A DNA stretch of 64,000 bases from a virus: positions 64,001-128,000 of the IMG/VR virus record IMGVR_UViG_3300027782_003601; one strand, 5' to 3'. Under the pieces are notes generated by a model, which had not been told where the DNA came from, made no database searches, and worked only from the letters and a program-made list of their open reading frames with translations. Both the position numbers and the translations under genes were made by a program. Shown in pieces: positions 34,316 to 45,068 of this stretch (the first letter of the stretch is position 1; every line of letters begins with the position of its first letter).

Positions 34316-34420
34316 TAGTATTTATCACAACAGGTTACGAAAAAAATTAAAAGAACTTAAAAAAAAGAACCCTTTTATTTATAAAAGTTTCTAATCTTAA
34401 ATTTTAAGATATTTATACAT

Positions 34421-37400
34421 ATGAAATTAGAAGTAGATAAACCAGAGGTAAAAAAATTAGTAGTAGTATACTCGGGTCGTTTCCAACCATTCCATGCTGG
34501 GCACTATGTATCCTATTTAAAACTTTGTCAAAAATTTGGCAAAGATAATGTATATATTGCAACATCAAACGTAACATCTGGTCCAAAATCTCCATTTAAT
34601 TTTAACGAAAAAAAGGAAATTGCAACTAAAATGTTCAATGTTCCATCTGATAAATTTATAGAAGTTAAAAACCCATATGCTCCTAAAGAAATATTACAAC
34701 ATTTTGATGGAAAAACTACTGCTTATATTGCAGCAGTTGGGGAAAAAGATGAAAGTAGATTAACTGGTAAATATTTTAAACCATATAAAGGTAAAACTGG
34801 ATATGGATATGATGAGATAGGATATACATACGCAGTTCCTGCCGAATCAAACCCAATTAGTGGAACGGATGTTCGTAATTGGTTAGGTAGTGGAGATGAT
34901 GAATCTAAAAAGAAAAGATTCTTAAAAGCATATCCAAAGTTTAATGCAGATATTTTTAAAATGATAACAAACAAATTAAATGAAGATGGATTTCCTGGAG
35001 GAATCGGTACTGGTTTAGATTTACCAGGAGGATATATTAATGGTGCACCAACGGGTTCAACAAACGAATCAAATAATACTCACCCATCTTCAGAATTTAG
35101 AAAAGAACCACATCCAACAAGATATGAAACAGAACATCCATCGGATGAACCTGATTGGTATAAAACTGAAAATTTATATGACCCAATTGGAAATGTAATT
35201 GATAGAGTTGTTGCTGAAGAAATATTTAAAGAATTTTCTAAACAATATTTTGGTGAAGCTCCTAATCCTATAATGGATAAGGAGTTTGATTATACTGCTG
35301 CAGATGGTAAAAAGAAAAAAATTACTGTTAAAGGTGCATTAAGATTACCAAAAGAACATCCTGCACACGTTCAAGCTTCCAAATTAGTTGGTAGTGATAA
35401 AACATCTGCAATAGCAAAAGGACCAGAGGATGCTCCTGCAAACGAACCAAAAAAATTACCACAACAAGGAAAAGCTGCAAAACAAGCAGCAAAACCTGCT
35501 CAACCTGGACAACCAGTTAAGCAAGGTCAGACTCAACAAGGTAAAGCAGATAAGGCAACGGGAAAATCCACAACATCCACACCACAAGGAGCAGAACAAA
35601 CTCCACCTCCACAAACATTAAGTGGTGATGAATTAAAATCATCAGCTGAAAAGAAAAAAGATACAAACAAAAGTGTATTTGGAAAATGGGGTGATAGATT
35701 TAAACAAGAAGTTAAAGAAATTGGAGATACTATTAAAACATTTTTGGATGAAGATGAAGCTCATATAGCACATGAAGGACATGACCCGAATTCTCCAATA
35801 AGAAAAAAAATCACAGAAAAACTTACTGATTTTGTAGCAAAAATGCCTGCAAATGTTGCAAAGCATGTATTAAAAGTTGCAAAACAAAAAGTACATCAAT
35901 TAAAAAATACAGGTAGAGGTATTCAATCATTGGCAGTATCTGCAATGAAAGGTGAAAAACCTAAATTTGGTATGTATAAAAATAGAGATGGTAAATGGCA
36001 ACATAGTGAAAATGAAGCTAAAAGACAAAAGAAGGCATTTATAGATACTGGAAAAGATATTGCATTAACTGCGGCAGCAGTAGTAACCGCAGGTGCAATT
36101 TCGGGAGCAGTAGCAGGTGCAGCTCATGGAATTGGTGGAATTGCACATGGCGCAGCTCATGGAGCAACACATACATTATCTCATGGGGTAAGTGGATTTT
36201 TACATCATATGGCAGTTGATTTTGGAAAACATTGTTTTAAAGAATCTGTATTTTTAGCAACTGGCGCAGGACATACTCAAGCAGCTAATTTAGCTATGGG
36301 AGCGGGTTTAATTGGTGAAAATATTTGGAAAAATACAATCAATGAAGAAGATGATATTAAACAAAATACATCAATGTATACCGAATTATTGAAACAAACT
36401 TTGGAAAAAATGGAAACGTTTGAACCAAATCCAACTCAATATTTGGAAATGCTAAAATCATATGCGGCAACTAAACAAAAAGCAGATTTGCAAAAATTAG
36501 TAGGTCCTATGAATGAAGTAATTTCTCCATTAAAAAGAGAAAACGTAAATCATTTTGTAGAATACGCAACTAAACGATTAAAATTAAAAGAACAACCAAA
36601 AGTAACATTAATAGAAGACCCTGAGTTTTCAAAACAAAATCATTCATTAGGAGGATACAATGTTGATTCTAAAGAAATATTTGTAGCAACTGAAGGTAGA
36701 TTAACTGCGGATATTTTAAGAACTATTGCACATGAAATGGTTCATAGAAAGCAAGATGAAATGGGATTGATTGGTGATTCAGTAAAAGATGGTGCAGATG
36801 GTTCTCCAATAGAAAATAAAGCAAATTCAATAGCAGCAATATTACTAAGAGAATATGGTAAATTAAATAAAACAATTTACAATGAAGATATTAATATAGA
36901 TGTTGATAAGGGTGATACTGTTTTAATGGGTAAATTTAAAAACAAAAAAGTAGTAGCAAAAGACTTTGGAACTGATGACCATGGAATGCCAACAATCAAT
37001 GGTAAAGTTGCAACCACATTTAGAATACCAAGAGGAGAAGAAAAACCAGATTCACAATCCGTATTTGATGAAGTAACTACAAACGATTGGCATTTTAAAG
37101 CAATTATGGCTTTATATGATAAATCAAATTCATTTGGTAAAAAGAAAATAGCAGCAGCAGTTTGTTCAGACCCAAATGCAAATAGAAAAGATATTGTAGT
37201 TCAATTGAGAGATTCGGATTATCAAGAAGTAACTGCTATTACTGATAAATTAAGATTATCAGAATATATTGAAAAAAAAAAATTAAATGAAATTGAAGCT
37301 AAAACTAAAGGATTAGGTGGAACTAATCCAAATGATTACGAAACAAAAGCTGAAAAAGATTTTAATAAACACCATAGTATAGATATGTACACAAATTCAT

Positions 37401-38962
37401 TAGGTACTTTAGATAAAGATACTGTTGATTTTGATGATGGTGGTGTTGATGTTGGATTTGTTCCATATAATTCAAAAAAAGATAAAATAAAAAGAGGTTA
37501 TGAGCCTGTTAAAACTGAAAAACTAACACAATCTAATTTAGATAGTGTTGAAAAATATGCAGATAGAGAATTAAAACCTGCTGATATAGAGTTTAGTAAT
37601 CATTTTTTTGATAGAGTTAATGATACTCGTAATGGTAAAGAAATATCTGAACCAGAACTAACTGGTTTTTTTAAGAGATTAATACGCCACAAAAAACAAT
37701 TTATAGATTTTTTAGATAAATACAATCAAATCGTAGTTAAAGACGATAGAAGTAATATCAATATTCCATTTGCAAAGATGGCAAATAAAGTTATTGCCAA
37801 AACTATAATGAGAAAAAATGATTTTCAAACCACTTCTCCTACAATCGTAAATGAAGTAGGTGAGGGTTCATCAAAGCCATATTCTTTTACTCAAAAAAGA
37901 AACGAAAAAAATAATAAAATTTACTCATTTACTACCACTTCAAATGAAGATTATAGAGTTGAGTTTGATTATAAAGATAAGTTTGATGCTTGGGAGGTAT
38001 CATTTGCTACATATTTTGATTCAGATGATGCAGTTATAAATAAAGGAGAACTATACTCTGTAATGGCAACTATAACAAATATATCATTAGATTTTATTAA
38101 AAAAGTAAATCCTAAAACAGTATATTTTTCATCTTCAAAAAATTTTGATAATGATAATAGACGTGAAAAACTTTATTTGGCTTATATAAAAAAACAACTC
38201 CCTAATTGGAAATTGGGTAAAAACTCTGGTTTTACTACATTGACTAACCCTAAATATAATAATCAACCAAAGTTTGATTGGTTAAAACAACCAATAAATG
38301 AAATTACACAAGGTTTGTATGCAGGTAAAATTAAAATTGGTGGACAATCAGTTGATATTGAAGTAGAATTATTAGGAGCTGACAATAAAACAAAAGAGTT
38401 TTTAACAAAGATAATTCACATAGATAAAGAATATCAGAACAAATTACCTATTGGTTCTCAATTCAAAATACCAGCAAGAGTATTTAGAATGCCAGGTGGT
38501 GGATGGCACAAAATTAAATCATCCGCATTTAAAGAATCATTAAATGAGGGCGGAGCATATGGACATATGTCTCATCCGTTTGATGATATGAATTTAACTT
38601 TTGGTGATTTAAAAAATATAATCACAAATGCATTAACTGGTAATTTAGAATTGACAAGAGAAAAATGTATAGCTGGTGATACTATAATACATACTGAAAA
38701 AAATGGTGATATGACTATTGCAAAGTTTGTAGATAATAAATTAGTTGATAAAGTATTGTCATTTAATGAAGAAACCAAACAAAATGAATATATGGATGTT
38801 ATGTTATCTTTTAATAATGATATTTCAGATGATTGGTTGGAAATTGAATTAGAGGATGGAAAAACTATACAAGTAACTCCGAATCATAGAATGTATGTAG
38901 AAGGAATTGGATATGTTGAAGCAAAACATTTGACAAAAGATATGGAGTTAAAAATAATCTAA
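34421..38962 (+). CDS. N-half of fractured multidomain protein: cytidylyltransferase-like domain, HExxH module, other modules, ligase N-part, IntN
   Basis: SGRFQPFHAGH (HIGH), AHEMVH, NHFFDR, EGGAYGHMSHP...REK followed by intein CIAGDT. Confidence 0.8.
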   Translation: MKLEVDKPEVKKLVVVYSGRFQPFHAGHYVSYLKLCQKFGKDNVYIATSNVTSGPKSPFNFNEKKEIATKMFNVPSDKFIEVKNPYAPKEILQHFDGKTTAYIAAVGEKDESRLTGKYFKPYKGKTGYGYDEIGYTYAVPAESNPISGTDVRNWLGSGDDESKKKRFLKAYPKFNADIFKMITNKLNEDGFPGGIGTGLDLPGGYINGAPTGSTNESNNTHPSSEFRKEPHPTRYETEHPSDEPDWYKTENLYDPIGNVIDRVVAEEIFKEFSKQYFGEAPNPIMDKEFDYTAADGKKKKITVKGALRLPKEHPAHVQASKLVGSDKTSAIAKGPEDAPANEPKKLPQQGKAAKQAAKPAQPGQPVKQGQTQQGKADKATGKSTTSTPQGAEQTPPPQTLSGDELKSSAEKKKDTNKSVFGKWGDRFKQEVKEIGDTIKTFLDEDEAHIAHEGHDPNSPIRKKITEKLTDFVAKMPANVAKHVLKVAKQKVHQLKNTGRGIQSLAVSAMKGEKPKFGMYKNRDGKWQHSENEAKRQKKAFIDTGKDIALTAAAVVTAGAISGAVAGAAHGIGGIAHGAAHGATHTLSHGVSGFLHHMAVDFGKHCFKESVFLATGAGHTQAANLAMGAGLIGENIWKNTINEEDDIKQNTSMYTELLKQTLEKMETFEPNPTQYLEMLKSYAATKQKADLQKLVGPMNEVISPLKRENVNHFVEYATKRLKLKEQPKVTLIEDPEFSKQNHSLGGYNVDSKEIFVATEGRLTADILRTIAHEMVHRKQDEMGLIGDSVKDGADGSPIENKANSIAAILLREYGKLNKTIYNEDINIDVDKGDTVLMGKFKNKKVVAKDFGTDDHGMPTINGKVATTFRIPRGEEKPDSQSVFDEVTTNDWHFKAIMALYDKSNSFGKKKIAAAVCSDPNANRKDIVVQLRDSDYQEVTAITDKLRLSEYIEKKKLNEIEAKTKGLGGTNPNDYETKAEKDFNKHHSIDMYTNSLGTLDKDTVDFDDGGVDVGFVPYNSKKDKIKRGYEPVKTEKLTQSNLDSVEKYADRELKPADIEFSNHFFDRVNDTRNGKEISEPELTGFFKRLIRHKKQFIDFLDKYNQIVVKDDRSNINIPFAKMANKVIAKTIMRKNDFQTTSPTIVNEVGEGSSKPYSFTQKRNEKNNKIYSFTTTSNEDYRVEFDYKDKFDAWEVSFATYFDSDDAVINKGELYSVMATITNISLDFIKKVNPKTVYFSSSKNFDNDNRREKLYLAYIKKQLPNWKLGKNSGFTTLTNPKYNNQPKFDWLKQPINEITQGLYAGKIKIGGQSVDIEVELLGADNKTKEFLTKIIHIDKEYQNKLPIGSQFKIPARVFRMPGGGWHKIKSSAFKESLNEGGAYGHMSHPFDDMNLTFGDLKNIITNALTGNLELTREKCIAGDTIIHTEKNGDMTIAKFVDNKLVDKVLSFNEETKQNEYMDVMLSFNNDISDDWLEIELEDGKTIQVTPNHRMYVEGIGYVEAKHLTKDMELKII
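38666..38959 (+). mobile_element. split intein N-fragment (98 aa)
   Basis: Block A CIAGDTIIHT; block B VTPNHRMY; ends at the stop codon. Confidence 0.9.
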
Positions 38963-38965
38963 CAA

Positions 38966-38979
38966 CCATCAGTTTTTTC
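38966..38979 (-). promoter_or_regulatory. copy of intein-less insertion site (candidate operator)
   Basis: Reverse complement GAAAAAACTGATGG versus rejoined exons GAAAAAACGGATGG (13/14); 9 nt upstream of ATATTTATA 38989-38997. Confidence 0.6.
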
Positions 38980-39017
38980 ACAAAATTTATATTTATATGT
39001 AAATAAAAACTATAAAT

Positions 39018-39752
39018 ATGATTGAAAAGTGTAAATATTGTGAAATAAAAATTAAAATTATTGGAAAAAATAGTATGAATGGACATATAACAAATTGTAA
39101 AAAATATAAAGAATGGAGAGATACTACTTTTAATTATGATTTTTTATATGATGCGTACATAGTAAATGGAAAGTCCGCATTACAAATTGCAAATGAAAAT
39201 GGGTGGAAATCATCTACTATAGTAAATAAACAATTGAATAGATTGGGTATAGCTGTTAGAAATGTTAAACAATCCCACCATATGTATGAGTATAAGTCTA
39301 GAATTGAAAAAACTAATTTTAAAAAATATGGAGCAGTAAATCCATTAAGTAAAGGAACTGTATCATATGAAAAACGAAATAAAACAGTTAAAGAAAAATA
39401 CGGAGTTGATAATGTATTTCAACATATGGATGTTAAAGAAAAAATAAGAAATTCTGGAGCATTCAAATCATTATTTCCAAACTATAATATAAATTCTATA
39501 CGAATTATAGAAGAGTATGGTAAGAAATATGGATATAATTTTCAACATGCCGAAAATGGGGGAGAATATTTTGTAAATGGGCTTGGATATTATTTGGATG
39601 GGTATGATAAAGAAAAAAATGTAGTAATTGAAATAGATGAATCCCATCATTTTAATAAAGATGGTTCACTTAAACAAAAAGATATAATACGTCAACAAAA
39701 AATAGAAGAATTATTACTATGTAAATTTATTAGAATAAAATATGAGAATTAA
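39018..39752 (+). CDS. free-standing Vsr-like/DUF559-type homing endonuclease 1
   Basis: Lies between intein halves; LDGYD..VIEIDE.HH nuclease motif; N-terminal CxxC..H..C and KKYG/EKYG repeats. Confidence 0.8.
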   Translation: MIEKCKYCEIKIKIIGKNSMNGHITNCKKYKEWRDTTFNYDFLYDAYIVNGKSALQIANENGWKSSTIVNKQLNRLGIAVRNVKQSHHMYEYKSRIEKTNFKKYGAVNPLSKGTVSYEKRNKTVKEKYGVDNVFQHMDVKEKIRNSGAFKSLFPNYNINSIRIIEEYGKKYGYNFQHAENGGEYFVNGLGYYLDGYDKEKNVVIEIDESHHFNKDGSLKQKDIIRQQKIEELLLCKFIRIKYEN

Positions 39753-39846
39753 ATCTATAAAAAAAATAAATAAAGAGCAAAACAGATATGATTTAAAAGT
39801 AGATGGGTTTTCATGCTACTATGCAAATGATATATTAGTTCATAAT
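39742..39846 (+). mobile_element. split intein C-fragment (35 aa), +1 Thr
   Basis: MRIKSIKK...RYDLKVDG..YYANDILVHN|T, blocks F and G. Confidence 0.9.
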
Positions 39847-40887
39847 ACGGATGGGCAAGCTCTTGCAATTAGTTGGAAAAATGGTAGATTAATTGCAGCA
39901 AGAAACAAATCACATTTACAAAATGCAGGAGTAGGTGCTATGGGTATTGAAGATGTTGCATCAAAGTTTGCAGGTAGAGGTGGATTAACTGATGCTTACA
40001 ACTTTGCAATGAAAGATTTATCAGCAGCAATTCAATCTCTTTCAGAACCACAGAGAAAAAAAATATTTAACGAAGGACAGTGTTTTATGAATTTAGAGGT
40101 TATATGGCCTACATCGGTAAATGTAATACCTTATGGACAACCACTATTAGTATTTCACAATACAACTTGTTATGATGAGAAAGGTGTAGCAATCGGAGCA
40201 AATCAAGGAGCAGCAACAATGTTGGCAGGAATGATTAAACAAGTAAATGGAGATGTTCAATCTAAATATACAATTCAAGGACCTCCTGTAACAAAATTAC
40301 CAAATAATGAAGAATTGAGTTCTAAGCAAAGTAAATATTTAACACAACTACAAAAATTACAATTTCAATTTCAATTAAGTAATAAAGATGGTGTAGCAGA
40401 TTATCATCGTGCTTGGTGGGCAAACTTCATAGATAAGAGTAAAGTTAAGTTACAAAAATTAGAAAGAGATGCTTTAATTAACAGATGGGCATTTGGTGAT
40501 AAATCATTGCGTTTAAATACTATTACTGATAAAGATGCTCAAAAATGGGCAATGGATAATGATAAAGTAAATGTGGCAAACCAACAAAAAGAAAATATCA
40601 GACCATTTGAGGAAATATTTTTAGGAGTTGGAGCAGATGTTTTATCATTTATGGATTCAGTATTAACTGTAAATCCAAATGCAGCAGTTGCTAATATGAA
40701 ACAAAGATTAAAAGATACTGCTGATAAGGTAAGAGGTAGTGGAGATGTATCTAAAATAGAAAAATTAAAGAAAGAATTAGCAAGATTACAATCAATTGGT
40801 GGATTGGATAAGATAGTTCCAAATGAGGGTATTGTATTTATTTATAAAGGAAACACTTATAAACTTACAGGAACTTTTGCACCTTAA
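39742..40887 (+). CDS. C-half: IntC plus ATP-dependent ligase-like nucleotidyltransferase domain
   Basis: IntC ends VHN; extein TDGQ completes KxDG motif I; NLEVI, EGIVF and YKLTG resemble motifs III-V. Confidence 0.75.
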   Translation: MRIKSIKKINKEQNRYDLKVDGFSCYYANDILVHNTDGQALAISWKNGRLIAARNKSHLQNAGVGAMGIEDVASKFAGRGGLTDAYNFAMKDLSAAIQSLSEPQRKKIFNEGQCFMNLEVIWPTSVNVIPYGQPLLVFHNTTCYDEKGVAIGANQGAATMLAGMIKQVNGDVQSKYTIQGPPVTKLPNNEELSSKQSKYLTQLQKLQFQFQLSNKDGVADYHRAWWANFIDKSKVKLQKLERDALINRWAFGDKSLRLNTITDKDAQKWAMDNDKVNVANQQKENIRPFEEIFLGVGADVLSFMDSVLTVNPNAAVANMKQRLKDTADKVRGSGDVSKIEKLKKELARLQSIGGLDKIVPNEGIVFIYKGNTYKLTGTFAP

Positions 40888-40960
40888 ATCAGATTTTAGG
40901 TATTTTTTACGAATAGTTTGATATATATAATAAATAAATTAGTTATATTAATATAGAATT

Positions 40961-41629
40961 ATGGCAAAGAGAAAATCCTTTGAAGAAAAAAACAAACACA
41001 TTCACAAATCTCGTCAATTAATTATAGATACGGTTTTTGGTAGAACGGATGATAATCAAACAACATTTGGTTACGAAAAAGAAGCCGACAAAAAAAGAGA
41101 AATTGGTGAAAAATGGGTGGATAGTGATGGTGTACAATGGGAACAAAAAGATGGGTTTAGAACAAACCTAACTAAAATGGATGAAGTAAGAGAATTCTTA
41201 CAAAAAATCAGTAGATGTTCTTTACCTGAATGTAAAACTGTAAAATATAGTACTGCAGATAAAAAAGCAATTGTTAAAACTACTATGTGTTTAGATTGCT
41301 TATCTAAAGTTGAAACAAAATTAAGAGTAGATGGTACATGGCCATTTTATGAGGATTATAAGATTACATTAAATAAATTAGGTTATATAAGAGATATAAA
41401 ATCTCAAATGGAAGAAGCATTGTTAGGTATTAAACAACAAGTTGAAATGGTAAATGAAAATGGTACTATTTCTAAATGGCAATGGGATATTGATATTGAA
41501 AAAGTAAAAGAAGATATTAAAAAAGATATAGATGGAGCATATGATGCAATTGAAGCTTTATTAGAAAGAAAATTAGCATTAGAAGAAAAATTGATAGAAT
41601 TAAATCATTCAGAACTTATAAAACAATAG
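40961..41629 (+). CDS. hypothetical protein with CxxxC...CxxC and coiled coil
   Basis: 222 aa ORF. Confidence 0.65.
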   Translation: MAKRKSFEEKNKHIHKSRQLIIDTVFGRTDDNQTTFGYEKEADKKREIGEKWVDSDGVQWEQKDGFRTNLTKMDEVREFLQKISRCSLPECKTVKYSTADKKAIVKTTMCLDCLSKVETKLRVDGTWPFYEDYKITLNKLGYIRDIKSQMEEALLGIKQQVEMVNENGTISKWQWDIDIEKVKEDIKKDIDGAYDAIEALLERKLALEEKLIELNHSELIKQ

Positions 41630-41632
41630 ATT

Positions 41633-42259
41633 ATGACAAAGATATTTTCATTCGCAAACATTTTAATAGTTGGTTTAATTGCATTTATTGTATTTAAACA
41701 ATGTAGTAGTGAGGATAAAGAAATTAAAACTATTAATGTTGATGGTAAAAAATATGAATTACTAAAACATAAAATAGATACATTTGTCGTTGAACATACA
41801 CAAATAAAATACAGAAAAGGAAAAGATATTCCTTATGAAGTAATTGTAGAAAAAGAAAAAAAAGTAGAAGTACCTGTTTATATAAAAGCCGATACTGAAA
41901 GAATATTAAAAGATTACCATGCAAAAGTTTTGTATAAAGATAAATTAGTATTAGATAATGAGTTGGGGACAATTGAAATAACTGATACTATATCTATGAA
42001 TAAAATTATTGGTAGAAAGTGGAATGCTCAAATGAGAGAAAGAACTGTTACTGATACTAAAATTGTAAAAGAACTTCCAAAAAATCAAGTTTATATTGGG
42101 GCACAGGGTGTGATAGGTAATTCTATTGTAATGGTTGGACCTCAAATAACTTTAAAAACCAAAAAAGATAATCTATATGGTGTAAATTTGTTTTTAGATG
42201 CAAACGGAAACAAATACTACGGAGCATCTATTGGTTGGAAGATTAGATTGAAAAAATAA
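41633..42259 (+). CDS. membrane-anchored protein (possible lysis accessory/spanin)
   Basis: N-terminal hydrophobic helix ending KQC; amphipathic beta-strand C-terminus. Confidence 0.45.
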   Translation: MTKIFSFANILIVGLIAFIVFKQCSSEDKEIKTINVDGKKYELLKHKIDTFVVEHTQIKYRKGKDIPYEVIVEKEKKVEVPVYIKADTERILKDYHAKVLYKDKLVLDNELGTIEITDTISMNKIIGRKWNAQMRERTVTDTKIVKELPKNQVYIGAQGVIGNSIVMVGPQITLKTKKDNLYGVNLFLDANGNKYYGASIGWKIRLKK

Positions 42260-42260
42260 T

Positions 42261-43115
42261 ATGGCAGTTCAAGGGCAACCTAAAAAATCTCTTAAAGAGA
42301 TAATTGCAGAAGAATATCGTAAATGTGGATTAGACCCAATTTACTTTATGAAAAAATATTGTGTTATCCAACACCCAACAAGAGGTAAAATACCTTTCCA
42401 CCTATATCCGTTTCAGGAAAATTGTTTAACAGACTTTAAAGAAAATCGTTTCAACATTATTCTTAAATCCCGTCAATTGGGTTTATCAACCCTTTCTGCG
42501 GGTTTTATTTTGTGGAAAATGTTGTTTAACGAAGATTTCAATGCATTGGTTATTGCAACTAAAGTAACAGTAGCAAAAAACTTAGTAGAGAAAGTAAGAG
42601 TAATGCACGATTTACTACCCGTATGGTTAAGAGATGGTGGGAACTCTTCGGTTGAAGATAACAAACTATCACTTAAACTAAAGAACGGTTCTCAGGTTAA
42701 AGCAATTGCATCCTCACCCGATGCAGGACGTTCGGAAGCCCTATCCCTATTAGTAGTGGATGAGGCAGCATTCATTAGAGATATTGATGAAATTTGGTTA
42801 TCCGCACAATCAACTCTATCAACGGGTGGTAGTGCAATTGTATTATCAACTCCAAATGGTGTGGGTAACTGGTTTCACAAAATGTGGGTAGAAGGGGAAA
42901 GTGGTGCAAATGGATTTAATCCTATAAATCTCCATTGGACAGTTCATCCAGAAAGAAATCAAAATTGGAGAGATGAACAAACTCGTATTTTGGGAGCAAA
43001 AGGAGCAGCACAAGAATGTGATTGTTTGTGGGGTGAATCCAAAGTTCAAGTTAAAAACCTAGAAACGATGGAAATAGACCATTATACTTTGGAACAATTG
43101 TATGATATTTTATAA
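42261..43115 (+). CDS. terL: terminase large subunit N-half (ATPase) plus 30-aa IntN
   Basis: LKSRQLGLST Walker A, LLVVDEAAF Walker B, STPNG; ends QECD|CLWGES... Confidence 0.92.
   Translation: MAVQGQPKKSLKEIIAEEYRKCGLDPIYFMKKYCVIQHPTRGKIPFHLYPFQENCLTDFKENRFNIILKSRQLGLSTLSAGFILWKMLFNEDFNALVIATKVTVAKNLVEKVRVMHDLLPVWLRDGGNSSVEDNKLSLKLKNGSQVKAIASSPDAGRSEALSLLVVDEAAFIRDIDEIWLSAQSTLSTGGSAIVLSTPNGVGNWFHKMWVEGESGANGFNPINLHWTVHPERNQNWRDEQTRILGAKGAAQECDCLWGESKVQVKNLETMEIDHYTLEQLYDIL
43023..43112 (+). mobile_element. atypically short split intein N-fragment (30 aa)
   Basis: CLWGESKVQV block A followed by TLEQLYDIL*. Confidence 0.85.
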
Positions 43116-43131
43116 TTTATATATTTATACG

Positions 43132-43147
43132 CAAGAATGCGATTGTG
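43132..43147 (+). promoter_or_regulatory. copy of intein-less terL insertion site (candidate operator)
   Basis: CAAGAATGCGATTGTG versus rejoined exons CAAGAATGTGATTGTG (15/16); 2 nt downstream of ATATTTATA 43121-43129. Confidence 0.6.
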
Positions 43148-43888
43148 GAAAATATGAACTATGTAACAGAAGGCTGGCAAAAAATAAAAAAATCAATAGA
43201 AATTATTGATAAAATTTATTCATTTGATGAAACTAAAACTTTATTATTAAATGAGTATTATTATGAAAATTATTTTGGAAAAGCTAAAAATAGAACTTTA
43301 ATAAACGATAATCCAAAACTATATAAATCAATATATTATCATAGTAGTATTTTAGAAGATACTATGAAAAATCACAACAGATATAAGGGATGGTATAATT
43401 TTAAATTTAGATTAAAATTTATAGCTGAAATTGATGGTAATATAAATAAATTAAAATGCAATTGTGGAAAAACATATACATGGAATGTTTATTGTAGAAG
43501 TTGTCCTGAATATCACAAAACTTGGTTAGGTAAGAATCATACCGATGATACTAAAAAACTAATGAGAGTATCCACAATTAAGTATTTAGATAAAACTAAT
43601 GGACAACTAGCACCGAGATATAATATAAATTCAATACCAATAATAGAGGAATACGGAAAAATCAATGGATATAATTTTCAGCATGCAGAAAATGGTGGTG
43701 AATACCATATCAAAGAATTGGGTTATTTTTTAGATGGATATGATGTTGAAAAAAATGTAGTTATTGAAATAGATGAAAGGCATCATTTTGATTCAAATGG
43801 TAAATTGAAAAAAAAAGATATAAAAAGAGAGCAGGAAATAACCAAATTATTAAAATGTGATTTTATACGGATAAAATATGAAAACTGA
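43145..43888 (+). CDS. free-standing Vsr-like homing endonuclease 2 (start may be ATG 43154)
   Basis: Lies between intein halves; CNCG..CRSC, NUMOD3-like GKNHTDDTKKLM, nuclease domain like endonuclease 1. Confidence 0.8.
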   Translation: MENMNYVTEGWQKIKKSIEIIDKIYSFDETKTLLLNEYYYENYFGKAKNRTLINDNPKLYKSIYYHSSILEDTMKNHNRYKGWYNFKFRLKFIAEIDGNINKLKCNCGKTYTWNVYCRSCPEYHKTWLGKNHTDDTKKLMRVSTIKYLDKTNGQLAPRYNINSIPIIEEYGKINGYNFQHAENGGEYHIKELGYFLDGYDVEKNVVIEIDERHHFDSNGKLKKKDIKREQEITKLLKCDFIRIKYEN

Positions 43889-44222
43889 TTATATATTAAA
43901 ACTTAATACTAAATACGAAATAATGACTCCAAATGGTTATAAATCATTTGGTGGTATTCGTAAATTAATAAAAAGTGATTATTATGAAATACACTTATCA
44001 AACGGATATAAATTAAAATGTTCTATAAACCATAAATTTATAAAAGATGGCGTTGAAATAGTAATCAATGATATAAATGTTGGTGATTATATTGATGGTG
44101 ATGATAATAAAAAAGTTGTCATACAAATTAAGGAATATAAAACAAAAGATATTACATTATTTGATATTGTAGAAGTAGATGGTGGTAATATATTTAATGT
44201 TGATGGTGTAGTTTCTCATAAT
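43878..44222 (+). mobile_element. long split intein C-fragment carrying blocks B, F and G
   Basis: TPNGY..F.G, CSINHKF (block B), LFDIVEV, VSHN, +1 Cys. Confidence 0.88.
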
Positions 44223-45068
44223 TGTGATTTTGTTGGTTCTGGAGATACCGTAATAGACCCGGAATTATTAACTTGGTATAAGAACACATATGTAATGGAA
44301 CCTGTTGAAAAAGCAGGGTTTGATAGAAACCTATGGAAATGGGAATATCCAAATTACAACAAACAATATATGGTTATAGCTGACGTTGCAAGAGGAGATG
44401 CAGCCGATTATTCTACTGCACAAGTTTTAGATATTGAAGATTGTTCGCAAGTTGCCGAATATAGAGGAATGATTGATACCAAAGATTTTGGAAACTTTCT
44501 TACTGCATTAGCAACCGAATATAATAATGCACTTTTAGTAGTGGAAAATTCAAACGTAGGTTGGGCATGTATTCAACAAGTAATAGATAGAGGATATCAA
44601 AATTTATTTTATATGAGTAATGATTTAAAATATATTGATGTTGAAAGACAAATGAGTAATAGGTTTTACAGAGATGAAAGGCAAATGGTTGCAGGATTTT
44701 CAACAACAACAAAAACACGTCCTCTTATTATTTCAGCATTAGACACTTATATGAGTGAGAAAGATATTCTTATTCGTAGTGGTAGATTAATAGATGAAAT
44801 GTTTACATTTATTTGGCAAAATGGTAGAGCAGAAGCAATGAAGGGATATAATGATGACTTAATTATGGCATTAGCAATTGGATTATGGGTTCGTAATACT
44901 GCACTTCGTTTAAGACAAGAAGGAATAGATTTAACCAAAAATATGTTAAATTCTGCACACGTTGCTAAATATAGTGGAATGATTACAACAGGTCATTTAA
45001 ATAGTAATCCATATGAAATGGAAGTGGGTAACAAAGAAATAGAAAATTTAACTTGGTTACTTCGTTAA
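43878..45068 (+). CDS. terL: IntC (115 aa) plus terminase large subunit C-half (RNase H-like nuclease)
   Basis: IntC ends VSHN|CDF; IADVARG..DYS, VVENS, GYNDDLIMA nuclease motifs. Confidence 0.9.
   Translation: MKTDYILKLNTKYEIMTPNGYKSFGGIRKLIKSDYYEIHLSNGYKLKCSINHKFIKDGVEIVINDINVGDYIDGDDNKKVVIQIKEYKTKDITLFDIVEVDGGNIFNVDGVVSHNCDFVGSGDTVIDPELLTWYKNTYVMEPVEKAGFDRNLWKWEYPNYNKQYMVIADVARGDAADYSTAQVLDIEDCSQVAEYRGMIDTKDFGNFLTALATEYNNALLVVENSNVGWACIQQVIDRGYQNLFYMSNDLKYIDVERQMSNRFYRDERQMVAGFSTTTKTRPLIISALDTYMSEKDILIRSGRLIDEMFTFIWQNGRAEAMKGYNDDLIMALAIGLWVRNTALRLRQEGIDLTKNMLNSAHVAKYSGMITTGHLNSNPYEMEVGNKEIENLTWLLR

Follow-up and report, generated by a model that had tools for sequence, protein, structure and literature searches.

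The window analysed here is a stretch of 64,000 nucleotides (nt), positions 64,001 to 128,000 of the 176-kb virus record IMGVR_UViG_3300027782_003601 (30% G+C), and contains two genes, host gene 1 and TerL, that are fractured genes as defined by Dassa et al. 2009 (PMC2677866), with the N-terminal half of a split intein (IntN), a free-standing endonuclease gene and the C-terminal intein half (IntC) lying between the two parts of the host gene. The short gap upstream of each endonuclease gene holds a near-copy of the intein-less junction of the surrounding host gene, and these two copies are candidate operators through which the endonucleases might regulate their own expression. All features described are on the plus strand unless stated otherwise. 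Host gene 1 begins as an open reading frame (ORF) of 1513 amino acids (aa), whose N-extein (34421..38665) encodes a large multidomain protein and ends with GAAAAA at 38665 (junction ...REK|, the K being that of a KxDG motif), and whose terminal 98 aa, starting with CIAGDT, constitute IntN (38666..38962, stop codon included). The next gene is that of endonuclease 1 (39018..39752; 244 aa), comprising an N-terminal zinc-finger/helical DNA-binding half and a C-terminal restriction-endonuclease-like nuclease domain and assigned to homing endonucleases in PHROGs, and it is followed by an ORF that opens with a 35-aa IntC (39742..39846, ending in ...ANDILVHN) and continues into the C-extein (39847..40887; TDGQAL, DNA ACGGATGG). 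TerL is broken after AAQECD: its N-extein, the ATPase part (42261..43022; Pfam Terminase_6N), ends with CAAGAATGTGAT at 43022 and is succeeded by the 30-aa IntN of an atypically split intein (43023..43115, CLWGES..., with stop codon), endonuclease 2 (43154..43888; 244 aa), for which the ATG start giving MNYV... fits the orthologues, a 115-aa IntC (43878..44222, ending in VVSHN) and the C-extein (44223..45068; CDFVGSG, DNA beginning with TGTG). At both loci the 3' end of the endonuclease gene overlaps the start of IntC by 11 nt (39742-39752 and 43878-43888), both intein halves are present, IntC ends in HN followed by a nucleophile, and removal of the intein restores the host protein; the Pfam matches of split intein 1 to Intein_splicing, Hint and PT-HINT are weak, all lying under the cut-offs of Pfam. 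The published fractured genes, which include terminase and DNA-ligase loci, share with these the architecture, the short endonuclease/IntC overlap, a promoter motif in the gap and the phage origin.

Copy 1 is inverted: read on the minus strand, 38966..38979 is GAAAAAACTGATGG and agrees with the rejoined junction of host gene 1 at 13/14 positions, the sole mismatch being at the wobble position of the Thr codon. Copy 2, CGCAAGAATGCGATTGTG (43130..43147), is in direct orientation, and its core CAAGAATGCGATTGTG (43132-43147) matches the rejoined TerL junction at 15/16 positions, with the mismatch at a Cys wobble position. What the initial annotation had reported of the junctions, copies, distances and wobble mismatches was thereby confirmed at both loci, as was its statement that each copy fits its own host gene only, since comparison of each gap with the other gene yielded 6-7 matches at most. 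In about 4000 trials with window segments of equal length neither match value was attained even once, while with sequences from a first-order Markov model a match as good as that of locus 1 arose in about 1e-3 of the trials and one as good as that of locus 2 in 0/4000 (<2.5e-4). On both strands of the 176-kb genome each copy is the sole site within one mismatch of its target, barring the TerL N-extein/IntN junction. A chance origin of the copies can be rejected on these trials together with this genome-wide uniqueness.

The targets that the copies resemble are common natural alleles. Among the 80 closest relatives of each host protein in viral contigs, 79 TerL sequences are intein-less and contiguous as AAQECD|CDFVGSG, and 77 relatives of host gene 1 are intein-less and contiguous across EK|TDG, the segment corresponding to IntN 1 being missing from these alleles. 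The natural junction of gene 1 is GAAAAA|ACNGATGG, in which the Thr wobble base is distributed as C48/T15/A13/G1. Copy 1 matches eight natural intein-less alleles at 14/14 positions, and the extended copy 2 (43130-43147) matches three natural TerL alleles at 18/18 positions, with a further three matched at 16/16; because the copies equal some natural alleles, the mismatches seen in the window are merely differences from the phage's own exteins. Copy 2 stops at TGT, the codon with which the intein also begins, and the following base in the orthologues is G, A or A(TG). The reservation attached to this codon in the initial annotation was justified and goes further than stated there: because nothing extends beyond TGT, copy 2 does not separate the intein-less allele from the N-extein/IntN junction. 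As a side observation, copy 2 with its 3' flank (43136-43152) resembles at 16/17 positions the codons of a KCNCGK zinc finger inside endonuclease 2 itself (43457-43475); the likeness is exact (17/17) in lineage L032 and weaker elsewhere, and could reflect short-patch conversion or a third binding site.

Both copies stand in a fixed relationship to a sequence, ATATTTATA, that was counted as a promoter on motif statistics. Of this strongly oriented motif the plus strand of the genome contains 29 occurrences, which with few exceptions are in intergenic regions, typically at 13-25 nt from the start codon downstream. About 25 genes are preceded by it, including structural genes and both endonuclease genes (window examples at 34409, 38989, 43121, 45076 and 48092), which makes it a candidate for a phage promoter other than the T4 late motif TATAAATA. 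The box of endonuclease 1 (38989..38997) lies 20 nt before the ATG, with copy 1 ending 9 nt upstream of it. At locus 2 the box (43121..43129, a motif match) precedes the copy, the core of which begins 2 nt downstream of the box, covers the likely transcript start and leaves 6 nt to the ATG. The box of endonuclease 1 and the adjacent TCACA (38979-38997) can also pair with the CKYC codons TGTAAATATTGTG (39030-39043) that open this gene, enclosing the start codon, and every position of the pairing is invariant in the orthologue alignment, which makes covariation uninformative.

The copies are conserved in orthologous loci. Family 1, comprising fractured loci whose endonucleases range down to roughly two-thirds identity, contains six distinct lineages in which the gap reads, as reverse complement, GAAAAAAC[T/C/A]GATGG while the remainder of the gap diverges, and the 9-nt spacing between box and copy is maintained in all of them. 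Across the five lineages of equal length 13/14 positions of copy 1 are invariant; the proportion is 38% for third-codon positions nearby (binomial P=3e-5), 23% for fourfold sites and 17/41 for the rest of the gap (Fisher P=7e-4). The sole variable base is equivalent to the Thr wobble position, where the natural targets likewise vary most. In family 2, the TerL orthologues, seven lineages (the window, L032, L011, L035, L046, L016 and L192) carry copy 2 as CAAGA[A/G]TG[C/T][G/A]A[T/A]TGT, adjoining the box on its 3' side at a spacing of 2 nt wherever the box is recognisable (that of L016 is degenerate). Within the core CAAGA.TG..A.TGT 11/15 positions are invariant in these seven lineages, compared with 8/78 neighbouring third-codon positions (six lineages), although the endonucleases have diverged by up to about 1 substitution per site; 3/4 of the variable positions are third-codon positions in the frame of the target, and the base after TGT is unconserved. 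By these comparisons both copies are under purifying selection across deeply diverged orthologues. The gap copy had been expected to covary with the extein junction of its own locus, and strict covariation of this kind was not seen: copy 1 ignores local wobble changes of the extein (GAG, AAG), and the copies hold the population consensus while the local targets drift.

The expectation that homologous loci would carry copies is borne out by these six and seven lineages, but not by several other fractured TerL lineages (L034, L037, L014, L049, L040/L043 and L195), which have neither a copy nor a recognisable box; in most of these the endonuclease ORF overlaps or abuts the stop codon of IntN, and in L014 the gap is 9 nt. 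In L040 and L043, where the endonuclease overlaps IntN and a copy is missing, the fractured TerL reads AAQE|C(L/V)WG...SHN|CDTEF or CDTDF; apparently an intein of the same type sits two codons upstream, or the extein sequence at the site differs. Two loci appear to have damaged endonuclease genes, that of L046 stopping early after MNYVKESWDKIKKHG and that of L059 being shortened to 190 aa, with the gap copies intact in both, which suggests recent decay of the genes.

The two endonucleases have their C-terminal 93 aa in common (74% identity) and possess unrelated N-terminal halves, an organization that would fit the presence of two different copies; no further copy of this endonuclease was found elsewhere in the 176-kb genome. 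An AlphaFold model of endonuclease 1, built on a 44-sequence alignment, has a mean predicted local distance difference test (pLDDT) score of 78, rising above 90 in the C-terminal domain (residues 155-244), which adopts a restriction-endonuclease-like fold. Its structural matches include the intron-encoded enzyme I-Bth0305I (3r3p; Z 7.0, root-mean-square deviation 4.5, 77 aligned residues; Foldseek probability 0.97), the DUF559-type protein 3hrl (Z 6.9) and Vsr (1cw0; Z 6.7), these Z values being moderate and common to other PD-(D/E)xK folds. A sequence search against solved structures in the PDB returned no match and no link to I-Bth0305I, and Pfam yielded only a weak match to DUF7487. The designation Vsr-like, used in the initial annotation, is accordingly retained for the modelled fold (Z about 7) and not for any detectable sequence relationship. 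In the 44 homologues E205 and H211 are invariant and E208 and D222 near-invariant, a pattern compatible with a putative acidic/His active site. I-Bth0305I, the prototype of the EDxHD or Vsr-like enzymes, is likewise a two-part enzyme with a C-terminal Vsr-type nuclease fold; its cleavage site adjoins the insertion site, and its main specificity resides in a 14-bp core adjoining the insertion site, within a footprint of about 60 bp (PMC3239194). This core is of the size of the copies described here; the differences are that I-Bth0305I is encoded by an intron in recA and that no operator has been described for it.

Related arrangements were sought by a scan for the IntC block ANDILVHN, which recovered 80 loci, including 24 distinct fractured loci in ribonucleotide reductase (RNR) and DNA-polymerase genes; the endonuclease subfamily of the window is present in none of these 24. 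A looser test, counting any match within 40 nt of the junction, singled out a group of loci with a GIY-YIG endonuclease in NrdA (L218, L230, L238, L242, L246 and L259), in which a class I RNR gene is split at SNL|C (junction EMSNL|CQEIT; GIY-YIG and RNR domains detected by Pfam). The gap in these loci (e.g. 6272-6331 in L242 and 4374-4432 in L259) forms a strong hairpin of -18 to -25 kcal/mol with TATAAATA in its loop, and the arms of the hairpin are GAGATTACACTTCCTA and its complement, equal to positions +5 to +21 of the C-extein. The arms match their own C-extein at 15/16 to 17/17 positions in 3/6 loci and at 10-11 positions in the other three. The geometry unites the two layouts of the window: the copy upstream of the box is inverted and 7 nt away, and the one downstream is direct, at a distance of 4 nt. 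Wobble sites of the coding target drift in these loci, without a corresponding change in the arms. These hairpins are those described in the 5' untranslated regions (UTRs) of fractured endonuclease genes, where they were not related to the extein (PMC2677866). Several split inteins of the ANDILVHN class lack an endonuclease (L235, L243, L254, L274, and also L212 and L255), with 29-377 nt between IntN and IntC. The idea of the copy as a landing pad for re-invasion of such inteins was discarded, five of these loci having no clear junction copy.

Homing endonucleases need to be expressed strongly enough to spread, without harming their carrier. To our knowledge, self-repression through a mimic of the homing site has been documented experimentally for I-TevI only. 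The operator of that enzyme is identical to its homing site at 15/20 positions, overlaps a late promoter, and is bound with equal affinity but cut about 100-fold less well (Edgell et al.; PMC2988022). As at I-TevI, a sequence resembling the homing site, though only part of it, lies at the promoter-like box upstream of the endonuclease ORF at both loci of the window, and the similarity, with 13/14 and 15/16 matches, is about as strong as there. The systems differ in that the T4-type enzymes are GIY-YIG or HNH proteins inside group I introns under T4 middle or late promoters, whereas those of the window are free-standing enzymes of the restriction (Vsr-like) fold between split-intein halves, under another promoter box, with the operator role read here from sequence. 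The I-TevI precedent invoked in the initial annotation stands, and is wider than was indicated there. The mechanism is already known in T4 intron endonucleases, and fractured terminase and ligase loci have likewise been described.

With confidence a little better than even, the copies appear to be operators bound by the endonucleases, acting in the manner of I-TevI autorepression, here for Vsr-like free-standing enzymes in split inteins. The DNA-binding half of each endonuclease would recognise the core of the homing site, i.e. the intein-less junction of the host gene; with a copy of this core at its own ATATTTATA promoter, the accumulating enzyme would cover the promoter region and thus limit its own transcription, the copy at locus 2 overlapping the likely transcript start and that at locus 1 covering the region 10-23 nt upstream of the box. 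Since the I-Bth0305I footprint of about 60 bp exceeds the core copy, the latter would represent only part of the full site and might be expected to be bound and yet poorly cut, like the operator of I-TevI; the 14-bp core within that footprint fits both this idea and the size of the copies. The lineages without a gap, which have neither box nor copy, may be counted in favour of the operator reading, and the two inverted C-extein copies of 15-17 nt flanking TATAAATA at NrdA, by analogy, as an independent parallel. The suggestion that such logic arose by convergence twice in one genome holds only in part, being favoured by the two different DNA-binding halves and two copies, and disfavoured by the single cassette design with one nuclease module and the same box.

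Several observations weigh against interpreting the copies as autorepression operators. The two copies differ in side and orientation, that of locus 1 being upstream and inverted and that of locus 2 downstream and direct, and the upstream site could equally activate. A near-perfect core might be cut by such an enzyme, its escape from cleavage being assumed. In family 2 the state with box and copy takes just 1-2 changes on the endonuclease tree, which makes it weak as independent evidence, and a count of its co-occurrences as many independent events was dropped for this reason. None of the 24 other fractured loci has a junction-spanning copy in its gap (best match 6/7), which rules out such copies as a general property of fractured genes. 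Finally, phage T4 lacking the I-TevI operator showed no defect in viability (PMC2988022), which leaves the selective value of such operators unclear.

The closest rival interpretation shares the binding step, and all evidence for binding fits it equally: the endonuclease would bind the copy with an outcome other than autorepression, be it activation, as the geometry of locus 1 might suggest, a block to read-through, titration by a decoy against off-target cutting, or a nick or cut in cis that stimulates recombination. Copy 1 lies upstream of the promoter, between the stop codon of IntN and the box, a location that is used by activators and roadblocks as well. However, the core of copy 2, 2 nt past the box, is in the classical position of a repressor, the sole tested precedent is one of repression (PMC2988022), and routine self-cleavage would be costly. 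These alternative outcomes thus seem rather unlikely, and, judging by where copy 2 lies and by the precedent of I-TevI, autorepression is the most likely result of binding; we infer binding, poor cleavage and repression in preference to the other outcomes. A different explanation places the element at the level of RNA, as a hairpin in the 5' UTR that hides the start codon in read-through transcripts, comparable to those of T4 I-TevI, Aeh1 mobE and fractured genes, with the likeness to the target arising as a by-product of the origin of the hairpin. Dassa et al. reported hairpins with late-promoter motifs in 15/16 endonuclease 5' UTRs, with two conserved stem motifs, and are silent on likeness to exteins or homing sites and on operators (PMC2677866). 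The strong folds at the GIY-YIG/NrdA loci speak for this explanation, as do the single-sequence folds of the gaps in the window, modest as they are (z about -2.2 and -2.3). The NrdA loci also have the same form as Aeh1 mobE and the T4 translational-control hairpins (cited in PMC2677866 and PMC2988022), with a late promoter in a hairpin before a gene-splitting endonuclease, but under the RNA model the NrdA arms would have no need to copy the host C-extein, as they do, and the copies of the window are not part of any supported hairpin. Furthermore, the family-2 alignment folds with only -0.6 kcal/mol and an unfavourable covariation term, and in the family-1 alignment the sole conserved pairing joins the box to the CKYC codons and does not involve the copy. 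A hairpin needs complementarity rather than identity to a homing site, yet the copies equal natural targets. An RNA-level role of the elements is improbable, and as the cause of the conservation of the copies it was rejected on the modest folds, the lack of covariation and the family-1 pairing that leaves out the copy.

The copies might also be neutral scars, namely short duplications of host sequence left by the recombination that placed the endonuclease cassette in the intein. At locus 2 the copy and the end of the N-extein form 15-nt direct repeats flanking IntN and the box, and box and copy may have had a single origin. Against this, conservation is far above neutral in both families, similar elements recur for two different targets and in the unrelated GIY-YIG system, and the inversion of copy 1 is not what a simple duplication would produce; a scar was rejected on the conservation and seems very improbable. 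Least credible of all is an ordinary promoter or UTR element for a host or phage factor with a coincidental likeness to the target. T-rich runs do occur upstream of several other ATATTTATA boxes, but no other ATATTTATA promoter in the genome has either copy motif, the two motifs are different and each fits the junction of its own gene only, and both would arise together by chance with a probability of the order of 1e-7.

The operator interpretation could have a wider bearing. Target-mimicking operators may be a general design of the endonuclease cassettes of phages that split genes, evolved independently in unrelated families, namely the Vsr-like enzymes, GIY-YIG in NrdA and GIY-YIG/HNH in T4 introns; we put this forward tentatively and hold it to be somewhat doubtful. 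If true, the motifs conserved on the stems of 5'-UTR hairpins in fractured genes, for which a new reading is hereby offered, would be paired DNA operators flanking a late promoter, and for a homing endonuclease not yet characterised a few bases beside its promoter would suffice to tell its recognition core. A search of the literature found no description of target-like operators for endonucleases of fractured genes or for Vsr-like endonucleases. The comparisons made at the two loci speak for the same logic at work with another nuclease fold and in another setting, that of split inteins in an essential packaging motor. The copies also lead to predicted recognition cores for both enzymes, neither of them characterised so far, namely GAAAAAAC(N)GATGG and (C)ACAAGA(R)TG(Y)GATTGT(G), and supply a simple sequence rule for locating such sites elsewhere.

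The split intein of TerL fits by its lengths, as distinct from sequence homology, the AceL-TerL/GOS-TerL class, in which IntN has 25-37 aa, IntC 104-115 aa, and Cys is present at positions 1 and +1 (PMC11766414); the corresponding values here are 30 aa, 115 aa, Cys1 and Cys+1. Members of this class are used in protein semisynthesis and are known as protein tools, not for the regulation of their loci. For host gene 1 neither the C-extein nor the contiguous intein-less alleles over the junction (L315, L316) matched any family in Pfam or PHROGs; only the KxDG motif (EK|TDG) was seen, which suggests a possible covalent nucleotidyltransferase or ligase. In further loci (L015:2250-3560, L109:1900-3150, L094 and L096), endonucleases of the family found in the window interrupt DNA polymerase genes at the DTDS motif. 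A third test of the copies on L015, L109 and L094/L096 was given up, the degenerate remnants leaving no exact junction. The intein remnants of these polymerase loci consist of an IntN-like tail without Cys1 and an IntC-like peptide (MKIKKI...), which is encoded either as a separate small ORF ending in a partial extein repeat (YTDT or IDT) or in fusion with the C-fragment.

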